A stretch of DNA of 64,000 nucleotides from Clostridia bacterium (GCA_017522765.1 JAFWYG010000001.1:27291-91290); one strand, 5' to 3'. Counted from the stretch's first letter, positions 1,523-1,879 are shown. A program made the numbers and translations. Notes: generated from the letters alone by a model not told the origin.

Positions 1523-1652
1523 TTTTTCCTCCTAACGTTTCCTTTCAAGGTCTTAACATTTTTGCCTTGTAGCTTAAGTACTGCACCTCCTTGTTTCTAG
1601 CACAGTAGCTCATACTACTAAAAAAGTTTTAACATTAATTCTTTTTGGTGTC

Positions 1653-1672
1653 TATACGCGCGTATACGCGTA
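1653..1672. promoter_or_regulatory. 20-bp perfectly alternating pyrimidine-purine palindrome TATACGCGCGTATACGCGTA (Z-DNA-prone), about 130 bp upstream of the giant gene 1 start
   Basis: Read directly from the sequence. Homologous tracts occur upstream of giant genes 2 and 3. Confidence 0.6.
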
Positions 1673-1717
1673 TTACTGTATGTAAAAATATTGCAACAAA
1701 AAACTCGCAAAATTAGC

Positions 1718-1855
1718 TTACGGAAGCGATTTCTTGATATTTAAGGTAACTATTTTTGTGTGCGAATATTAAATTTTATTAACAAGATTGTTACTTTAAT
1801 TTTACAAACTCCACATTTAAACCTCTTCCCCGATCCGCACCTCTTGCTTCCGTAA
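1718..1855. promoter_or_regulatory. Inverted-repeat-flanked segment upstream of giant gene 1: TTACGGAAG (1718-1726) ... CTTCCGTAA (1847-1855)
   Basis: 9-bp inverted repeats 129 bp apart. The same arrangement is found upstream of genes 2 and 3. Confidence 0.5.
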
Positions 1856-1879
1856 ACGTTTACGTAATTTTCGCGACTT

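Follow-up and report, generated by a model that had tools for sequence, protein, structure and literature searches.

The 64-kb stretch of Clostridia bacterium DNA analyzed here (GCA_017522765.1, JAFWYG010000001.1:27291-91290; 64,000 nt, hereafter the window) is the origin region of an uncultured gut Clostridia metagenome-assembled genome (MAG) with 33% GC, and its sequence is identical to that of ENA ERZ28653805 scaffold_4 (626 kb). Three giant genes, g1, g2, and g3, lie less than 60 kb from oriC, all on the minus strand, and sequence comparison indicates that each is preceded by a common, rigidly spaced control region of ~240 bp. An earlier reading of the window (the original prediction) had proposed that the three paralogs share a control module, and this module is also found at nine further loci from other genomes. 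The interpretation favored here, to which we give a probability of roughly 0.6, is that the module would be a non-inverting, stereospecific nucleoprotein control region acting at the DNA level upstream of a sigma-A-type promoter and serving giant, and some smaller, genes for secreted or surface proteins in a clade of uncultured gut Clostridia.

Anatomy and Distribution of the Module

The order of elements, in gene orientation, is the same in 12/12 modules: a distal box, (Y)TTACGGAA; a direct repeat; a core, AAATTTAATATT; a proximal box, TTCCGTAA; an AT-rich block; a tract of alternating purines and pyrimidines; GTATAGACA, which includes a TAGACA -35 hexamer; a 17-nt spacer; and a -10 element. 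Measured from the distal box, the distances across the 12 modules are 61-62 bp to the repeat, 79-80 to the core, and 129-130 to the proximal box (box start to box start, leaving 121-122 nt between the two 8-mers), and the start of the proximal box is 70-72 nt from that of TAGACA. Relative to the predicted transcription start site (TSS), the tract spans ~-37 to -57, the proximal box -106 to -99, and the distal box ~-235 to -228, with the repeat starting at ~-175. The direct repeat, nGTAAY-N5-nGTWAA (17 bp), is present in every module, and its center coincides with the midpoint of the box pair within 1 bp. Boxes of the OmpR/PhoB-WalR type are direct hexamer repeats, TGTWAH-N5-TGTWAH, with centers 11 bp apart, and the repeat of the module of L007 (TGTAAC-N5-TGTTAA) has this response-regulator-type form perfectly. 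The sequence between the blocks is essentially randomized between paralogs, so that the blocks and their distances are under constraint. The core of g2- and g3-type modules is embedded in a nearly invariant palindrome, AAAGCAAAT-TTAAT-ATTTGCTTT. This palindrome lies in a block identical in g2 and g3, GGTAAAGCAAATTTAATATTTGCTTTATTTTT, which had been described as 31 bp long and has 32 bp; the AT-rich block noted with it is also present.

Chance does not produce such arrangements in the window. Pairs of the form TTACGGAA-N100-130-TTCCGTAA occur three times vs 0.00 expected (100 shuffles), and the 8-mer TTACGGAA has 11 copies vs 1.36 expected: six in modules, three in oriC, one intergenic, and one in an open reading frame (ORF). 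The inverted repeat extends to TTACGGAAG/CTTCCGTAA in g1 and g2 and to TTACGGAAC/GTTCCGTAA in g3, the ninth base being G/C in the former and C/G in the latter. The pair of 9-bp repeats originally reported is real, but the distance then given, 108-129 bp, has to be corrected to a separation of 119-120 nt. Another block, GTCTATAC, precedes each alternating run, and its distance from the proximal box is precisely 60 nt in each of the three modules of the window.

The 12 modules come from at least six related MAG species and comprise the three copies of the window and nine other loci. Relatives were collected with one pattern scan of GTDB genomes (six true modules and one chance match) and one of metagenomes (one true module and six chance matches). 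The seven true modules are the orthologs of g3, g2, and g1 in MAG CAYMVI01 (L002, L003, and L006, respectively), two loci of MAG CAZEVD01 (L004, L005), one from a Hadza-gut MAG (L007), and a g3-type copy on a metagenome contig (L011). L035-L038 and L039 were added by walking from homologs of the neighboring receiver-GGDEF gene, while a search with the N-terminus of g3 was swamped by Flg_new/InlB B-repeats, only P0121 covering the N-terminus. No module was found in a more distant relative lacking the giant gene (L040-L043). The most distant copy, in L007, precedes a gene for a small Cys-rich secreted protein, which ties the module to genes for secreted or surface proteins and not only to giant ones. 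A simple duplication relic is ruled out by the block-wise conservation across species.

The Predicted Promoter

Both GTATAGACA and the 17-nt spacer that follows its TAGACA are invariant in 12/12 modules. The extended -10 element is TGnTA(C/A)AA(A/C) in 10/12 modules, TGC-TACAAA in L039, and TATAAT without TG in L007; correspondingly, the spacer generally ends in ATGT, in L039 in ATGC, and in L007 in TAAT. TAGACA-N17-TACAAA, with TG at -15/-14, is a plausible sigma-A promoter of the extended -10 class as far as its sequence goes. A genuine promoter would be expected to show compensation of the kind seen here, with a perfect TATAAT without TG in L007 and a weak -10 paired with TG in ten of the other modules (with TGC in L039). 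A promoter scanner that requires T at the sixth -10 position gave no conserved site in the modules, because their sixth base is not T, and the promoter was read from the alignments instead. A second, weaker conserved promoter-like element, GTAACA-N17-TAATAT, lies inside the box-bracketed segment, whereas the stronger TAGACA-N17-TACAAA/TATAAT is outside it.

Other motifs are found around the promoter. Leaders of g2 type have a small hairpin with one compensatory change 3′ of the predicted TSS. At the predicted TSS of g3 there is a perfect Spo0A-type 0A-box (TGTCGAA in gene orientation, 39121-39127); it is kept in L002, L011, and L035, whereas in g1, g2, and L039 it is not. Inspection of the modules by eye gave no consistent match to sites for sigma-54, sigma-H, or sigma-E/K, to the Spo0A 0A-box, ComA box, catabolite-responsive element (cre), TnrA box, or DnaA box, to the Noc-binding site (NBS), or to the Chi of Lactococcus lactis.

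Selection on the Alternating Tract

The tract directly abuts the -35 hexamer and contains an alternating run of at least 18 nt in 12/12 modules (18 nt in L039, 19 in L007, counted by eye, and at least 20 in the other ten). The three runs of the window are its longest, the next being of 17 nt, and they lie upstream of each giant gene where originally located, give or take 1 nt in places. When the tract columns are anchored on GTATAGAC, 10-12 of the 14 preceding columns are variable. Among the first nine modules, 10/14 columns vary and none by transversion; with 11 modules, one edge column shows a transversion (in L039). Over six pairwise comparisons of related modules, which are not fully independent, the differences within the tract are 18 transitions and 0 transversions vs 259 and 317 in the rest of the module (Fisher p = 8e-7). 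Since only transitions differ, the alternation itself is selected, and the tract highlighted in the original prediction is a real feature under selection. Its G+C content is 10-13/20 (8/18 in L039) in a 33% GC genome, with single C/T and G/A changes being tolerated. What selection sees is thus whether a position holds a purine or a pyrimidine and, approximately, how much CG/CA the tract contains, a pattern to be expected if a structural property is being conserved. A CpG-decay mutation bias alone does not account for the transitions-only pattern, as the flanks are saturated with transversions and the tract has none. Slipped-strand phase variation of the tract is ruled out by the invariant total spacing. 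A cruciform or hairpin is made less likely by the lack of conserved palindromy in the tract.

Sequences prone to adopt the Z form are alternating runs of at least ~12 bp rich in CG/CA, and the tracts, with 18-30 nt and 8-13 G/C, are of this kind. A crude two-state estimate, using B-Z energies reportedly obtained by Peck and Wang and by Ho et al., places the B-Z threshold at sigma ~-0.042 to -0.055. Transcription-generated supercoiling can reach these values, which are above the average unconstrained superhelicity in vivo. The latter point favors an alternative that is possible, though on balance rather unlikely: the tract would never form Z-DNA and would be a flexible hinge, an indirect-readout protein site, or an anti-UP element needing pyrimidine-purine steps, the rest of the model being the same. 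Selection on the purine/pyrimidine class fits the deformability of pyrimidine-purine steps equally well. However, high G+C is kept despite the tolerated C-to-T and G-to-A changes, and a threshold on B-Z free energy fits this better than flexibility alone, for which (TA)n would be cheaper. The tract is also just upstream of the promoter of a 10-kb membrane-protein gene, and in the twin-domain model transcription-generated negative supercoiling peaks directly upstream of an active promoter. According to a 2026 review, which mentions the idea of a torsional buffer, a regulatory role of bacterial Z-DNA has limited support in vivo (PMC13463272), a further point for a tract that stays in another form.

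Orientation of the Bracketed Segment

Inverted repeats around a promoter-proximal segment led to the original proposal of an invertible promoter switch. A site-specific recombinase would flip the 121-bp segment between the TTACGGAA arms, whereby either an upstream activating site or the promoter within the segment, GTAACA-N17-TAATAT, would be turned on or off and the adhesins would become phase variable. Several observations fit such a switch: the inverted 8-10-bp arms are at a fixed spacing in every module (the arms of the fim switch are likewise short, only 9 bp), the segment contains a conserved promoter-like element, its exact midpoint holds a potential bending site, as a synapse would need, and the target genes encode surface proteins, a typical cargo of invertons. 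However, the orientation of the segment relative to the gene is the same in 12/12 modules, and a check for both orientations on assembled contigs found a single one in 10/10 independent metagenome assemblies of the species, the contigs crossing the distal arm on their way from the upstream gene to the segment. Six k-mer-based Logan contigs (L028, L029, L031-L034) end at position 39261. This base belongs to the 32-bp g2/g3 repeat and not to an arm; the paralogous block breaks the assembly graph there, and the break could be mistaken for structural variation. The strongest and most conserved promoter lies outside the segment, and no tyrosine or serine recombinase gene is found in the 64-kb window.

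The arms themselves also speak against inversion. They have 8-10 bp in the window, but only a core of 7-8 bp is invariant over the 12 modules, and the distal arm has decayed in some species (ATACGGAA in L035-L038, TTACGGAG in L039). In a helix model of the arms with 12 pairs, six are invariant and beyond these there is no covariation above that of shuffles. Finally, the same 8-mer is conserved singly in oriC, where a recombination core would invite lethal rearrangements. Nothing in the assembled sequence favors inversion, and we regard a switch as very improbable. Short inverted repeats around promoter-proximal DNA upstream of adhesin genes are not enough to call an inverton.

The complementarity of the arms could also be taken for that of a structured leader RNA or riboswitch, transcribed from further upstream, in which the arms would pair within a long 5′ untranslated region and enclose a ligand- or protein-binding domain. 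Giant adhesin genes are often riboswitch-controlled in other Clostridia, and a gene for a receiver-GGDEF protein adjoins g3. The likelihood of this is nevertheless minimal. The modules match no Rfam family (c-di-GMP riboswitches included), either at the gathering threshold or at E ≤ 5, the pairs beyond the invariant 8-mer lack covariation above shuffles, and between the g1 and g3 modules and their upstream genes there are intrinsic terminators, placed before the distal arm. Moreover, the blocks resemble promoter hexamers and protein sites, and it is spacing rather than pairing that is kept.

The Boxes at oriC

On one side of the origin are rpmH-rnpA-yidC-jag-mnmE-mnmG-rsmG-parA-parB and on the other dnaA-dnaN-recF-remB-like-gyrB. 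Three copies of TTACGGAA lie in oriC (boxes A, B, and C of Table 1), with true DnaA boxes beside them. In the oriC regions of five relatives (DnaA identity 92-64%; 94 kb), all nine exact copies of TTACGGAA are intergenic, between rpmH and dnaA or between dnaA and dnaN, and they occupy three orthologous positions in one orientation; these two intergenic regions account for 6.8% of the 94 kb. The remaining orthologous sites carry one-base variants of TTACGGAA. The position of box A is conserved in L015, L018, L019, and L024, and L023 has TTACGGAC there. This conservation marks TTACGGAA as a clade-wide oriC element used as single copies, which is the behavior of a protein-binding site. It matches neither the 0A-box TGTCGAA (4/7 positions) nor the DnaA box TTATCCACA (4/9). 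Literature matches to TTACGGAA/TTCCGTAA were limited to coincidences of the primer type, and to our knowledge the three conserved boxes have not been described before as an oriC element. Since the 8-mer is found singly at three conserved oriC positions, the regulator would not be dedicated to the adhesin genes, as had been suggested.

The origin is bipartite (56830-57425 and 58761-59195), with multiple TTATCCACA DnaA boxes, some overlapping the promoter-like site before dnaA, and a DnaA-trio-like CTACTAC run, CTACTACTACTAC, followed by an AT-rich region. The two copies of TTACGGAA outside modules and oriC are at 11244-11251, 2 nt downstream of the dprA ORF (stop codon at 11253-11255), and at 45355-45362, inside an uncharacterized ORF of 379 residues. 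The distal box of g3 directly adjoins a parS-like site, GTTTCACGTGAAAC (39362-39375), which is placed between two inverted DnaA boxes, TGTGGATAAC (39326-39335) and GTTATCCACA (39376-39385). This arrangement is kept in L002 and L011, partly in L035 (with mismatches in parS and DnaA boxes), and is absent in L039. In L022, which encodes a homolog of 528 residues, CTTCCGTAA is 5 nt from a parS-like site.

Taken together with the presence of all three giant genes less than 60 kb from oriC, the conserved boxes beside DnaA boxes and the parS-like and DnaA sites at the distal box of g3-type modules and in L022 might mean that the main role of the boxes is in the chromosome architecture or replication of the origin region, for instance as sites for a protein that organizes the origin, with their pairing serving domain organization or the coordination of replication with transcription, not promoter control. 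This seems improbable, though less so than inversion. The spacing between the boxes and the -35 is fixed to within 1 bp across paralogs and species, which points to a direct relationship with the promoter. Furthermore, parS and DnaA boxes are absent from the g1, g2, and L039 modules, and the module of L007 precedes a small secreted-protein gene.

Other Features of the Window

Coordinates are given in Table 1. The product of g3 has Flg_new/InlB B-repeats, DUF285, and a dockerin domain. Directly upstream of the modules are genes for a 153-residue protein without family match, an N-acetylmuramoyl-L-alanine amidase (adjoining g2; an exact-protein look-up gave no match), and the receiver-GGDEF protein next to g3.

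The starts of g1 (1470-1525) and g2 (27990-28030) have an unusual layout. A strong Shine-Dalgarno (SD) sequence and an ATG are shifted by one base relative to the frame of the giant ORF ("ATG A", then the ORF), and this is not a sequencing error, because it is conserved in all g1- and g2-type orthologs (L003, L004, L005, L006). The +1 frame encodes a conserved pilin-like N-terminus, G-[IV]-S-[ML], that in g3 is in frame. In both families, CGG A in the 0 frame stands exactly before the GGA Gly codon of the +1 frame; CGG is the rarest Arg codon (8/572), and a +1 shift at CGG-A would yield leaders of a typical kind, for example MKRNR-G|VSMITVV. One possible explanation is a programmed +1 frameshift; another is an upstream ORF with an internal or noncanonical start. 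In the leader of g2 (28026-28060), as in L003, L004, and L005, there is an invariant hairpin, AUAGUUU-AAGGAGGAGCUG-AAACUAU, with the SD sequence in its loop and the AUG overlapping its 3′ arm.

A ComM/YifB-like gene of the Mg-chelatase family (12489-14043) is split into two overlapping ORFs, one (13294-14043) with ChlI and the first 32 positions of the Mg_chelatase domain and the other (12489-13340) with positions 37-206 and the C-terminal domain, which suggests a frameshift or a pseudogene. An intergenic interspersed repeat of ~30 bp, roughly TTTTCGCRAnnnGGGGACRCYCCTTGT, occurs singly, in direct pairs, or in inverted pairs that form long hairpins. It is present upstream of all three modules of the window, yet it is not specific to modules. 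It looks like a repetitive extragenic palindrome (REP) or a terminator, and its palindromic nature explains spurious microRNA-type Rfam hits.

Table 1. Positions of the modules, genes, origin boxes, and interspersed repeats in the window
Feature	Position	Strand	Remarks
g1	start near 1521	-	runs past the left end of the window
g1 module	1619..1855	-	predicted TSS to distal box; from alignment and spacing
g1 predicted extended -10	1626..1635	-	ATGT-TAAAAC; TAGACA-N17-TAAAAC, TG at -15/-14
g1 predicted -35	1649..1654	-	TAGACA, within invariant GTATAGACA
g1 alternating tract	1653..1673	.	21 nt
g1 proximal box	1718..1725	-	TTCCGTAA in gene orientation
g1 core	1765..1776	-	AAATTTAATATT
g1 direct repeat	1779..1795	-	AGTAAC-N5-TGTTAA, midpoint of box pair
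g1 distal box	1848..1855	-	TTACGGAA; -236 to -229
g2	17126-28009	-	3627 residues (mechanical ORF list); SD-proximal ATG at 28028
g2 module	28104..28339	-	predicted TSS to distal box
g2 predicted extended -10	28111..28120	-	ATGT-TACAAA
g2 predicted -35	28134..28139	-	TAGACA
g2 alternating tract	28138..28167	.	30 nt, GC-rich core of ~16 nt
g2 proximal box	28203..28210	-	
g2 palindrome	28243..28265	.	AAAGCAAAT-TTAAT-ATTTGCTTT, holds core
g2 direct repeat	28263..28279	-	TGTAAC-N5-GGTAAA, midpoint
g2 distal box	28332..28339	-	
g3	ATG at 39053	-	3309 residues (mechanical ORF list)
g3 module	39126..39361	-	predicted TSS to distal box
g3 predicted extended -10	39133..39142	-	ATGT-TACAAA
g3 predicted -35	39156..39161	-	TAGACA
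g3 alternating tract	39160..39179	.	20 nt
g3 proximal box	39225..39232	-	
g3 palindrome and core	39265..39287	.	
g3 direct repeat	39285..39301	-	AGTAAC-N5-GGTAAA, midpoint
g3 distal box	39354..39361	-	
oriC box A	57052..57059	+	TTACGGAA; 30 nt upstream of TTGCAT in TTGCAT-N17-TATAAT promoter-like site before dnaA (by eye)
oriC box B	58773..58780	+	TTACGGAA; just past dnaA stop, 4 nt before DnaA box TTATCCACA
oriC box C	59028..59035	+	TTACGGAA; upstream of last DnaA box and DnaA-trio-like run CTACTACTAC
~30-bp repeat sites	1881-1925, ~3940-3975, 14180-14240, 15335-15385, 28354-28419, 39388-39451, 41345-41400, 54200-54255		also in L019, ~9350-9395

A Model for the Module

The original prediction had offered, as its second option, a regulator's operator together with a supercoiling-sensitive element, and this is broadly supported and close to the reading preferred here. 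In the proposed mechanism, a candidate sequence-specific factor that also binds oriC would occupy both inverted boxes, while a second protein would bend the DNA at the midpoint repeat or at the palindrome. The two boxes would thus be bridged into a loop of ~130 bp, with a geometry like that of GalR/HU or NagC/CAP, and stereospecifically aligned with RNA polymerase. The arrangement expected of a two-operator loop, boxes at one distance with a site centered between them, is what the 12 modules have, the looping itself being predicted. The alternating tract, between the looped complex and the -35, would be a torsion-sensitive joint, either by a B-to-Z transition or by the extreme flexibility of pyrimidine-purine steps, so that the output would depend on local negative supercoiling. 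Strong supercoiling would be expected upstream of 10-kb genes whose products are inserted cotranslationally into the membrane.

Several points weigh against this model. The window yielded no candidate gene for the TTACGGAA-binding factor. The resemblance between the midpoint repeat and WalR/OmpR-type boxes has low information in AT-rich DNA, and the repeat could instead be the -35 of the second promoter, GTAACA-N17-TAATAT, inside the segment. The formation of Z-DNA is a propensity of the sequence, and the alternation could reflect flexibility or indirect readout by a protein. A recombination synapse, too, would need symmetric inverted sites around a central site of bending. Finally, the modules are phylogenetically nonindependent (three paralog lineages times species), which makes the p-values optimistic.

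A bolder version of the model is that the tract would be a natural bacterial Z-DNA "flipon" whose B-Z free energy selection would hold near a threshold, with transitions tolerated and transversions not. It would be flipped by the negative supercoiling that arises behind RNA polymerase on 10-kb membrane-protein genes, thereby rotating a looped upstream complex relative to the -35 or uncoupling it, this complex being built by a putative oriC-binding master regulator that recognizes TTACGGAA. This we hold to be doubtful. If true, it would provide supercoiling feedback on the expression of giant adhesins and link the initiation of replication to the expression of surface proteins. Apart from this, TTACGGAA would be a component of oriC that is conserved across a broad group of uncultured Clostridia and had not been described before, one that ties the origin to giant surface-protein genes, and its presence in both oriC and modules suggests a new origin-binding regulator. 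Direct evidence for regulatory Z-DNA-prone sequences in bacteria is scarce (PMC13463272); the comparative data show purifying selection on the purine/pyrimidine alternation itself at a defined promoter position, and the module offers a concrete test case that can be mutated by transitions vs transversions.

Comparison with Known Systems

Two aspects of the module appear unusual, the selection for alternation at a bacterial promoter and the box shared with oriC; it otherwise resembles a composite promoter control region. As in invertons (fim, cwpV, and those of Bacteroides), short inverted repeats bracket a promoter-proximal segment upstream of surface-protein genes, with a possible central bend site. 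Unlike in these, 22 independent observations show no second orientation, the arms are conserved only as a 7-8-bp box, which oriC also has in single copies, the main promoter is not part of the segment, and no recombinase gene lies nearby in the 64-kb window.

A comparable geometry is that of the looped complexes of GalR-HU at gal OE/OI (113 bp) and NagC-CAP at nagE-nagB. These have in common with the module two operator copies 110-130 bp apart, a site for an architectural or second factor at the apex, and strict phasing, but the boxes of the module are both upstream of the promoter instead of straddling it, and an alternating GC tract lies between the complex and the -35.

CtrA, Spo0A, and MtrA are master regulators that bind both oriC and the promoters of envelope or adhesion genes, and here too the same short nonpalindromic box is found in oriC by DnaA boxes and upstream of surface-protein genes. 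In contrast, TTACGGAA matches neither the 0A-box nor TTAA-N7-TTAA, and the clade is one of uncultured Clostridia. In the epigenetic switches of pap and agn43, two GATC sites lie ~100 bp apart and the motif is also clustered in oriC. The module is similar in its paired short motifs upstream of adhesin genes and in their conservation in oriC, but its 8-bp nonpalindromic motif differs from the known targets of orphan methylases.

For the tract, the nearest counterparts are the engineered (CG)n Z-DNA reporters upstream of tetA (Rahmouni and Wells 1989, cited in PMC13463272) and the eukaryotic promoter "flipons." These share with the module an alternating CG/CA tract just upstream of the promoter of a membrane-protein gene, a place at which negative supercoiling driven by transcription would be expected to stabilize Z-DNA. 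The tract of the module differs from them in that it is natural, belongs to a low-GC bacterium, and is maintained through transitions only, the Z form being here a propensity of its sequence.

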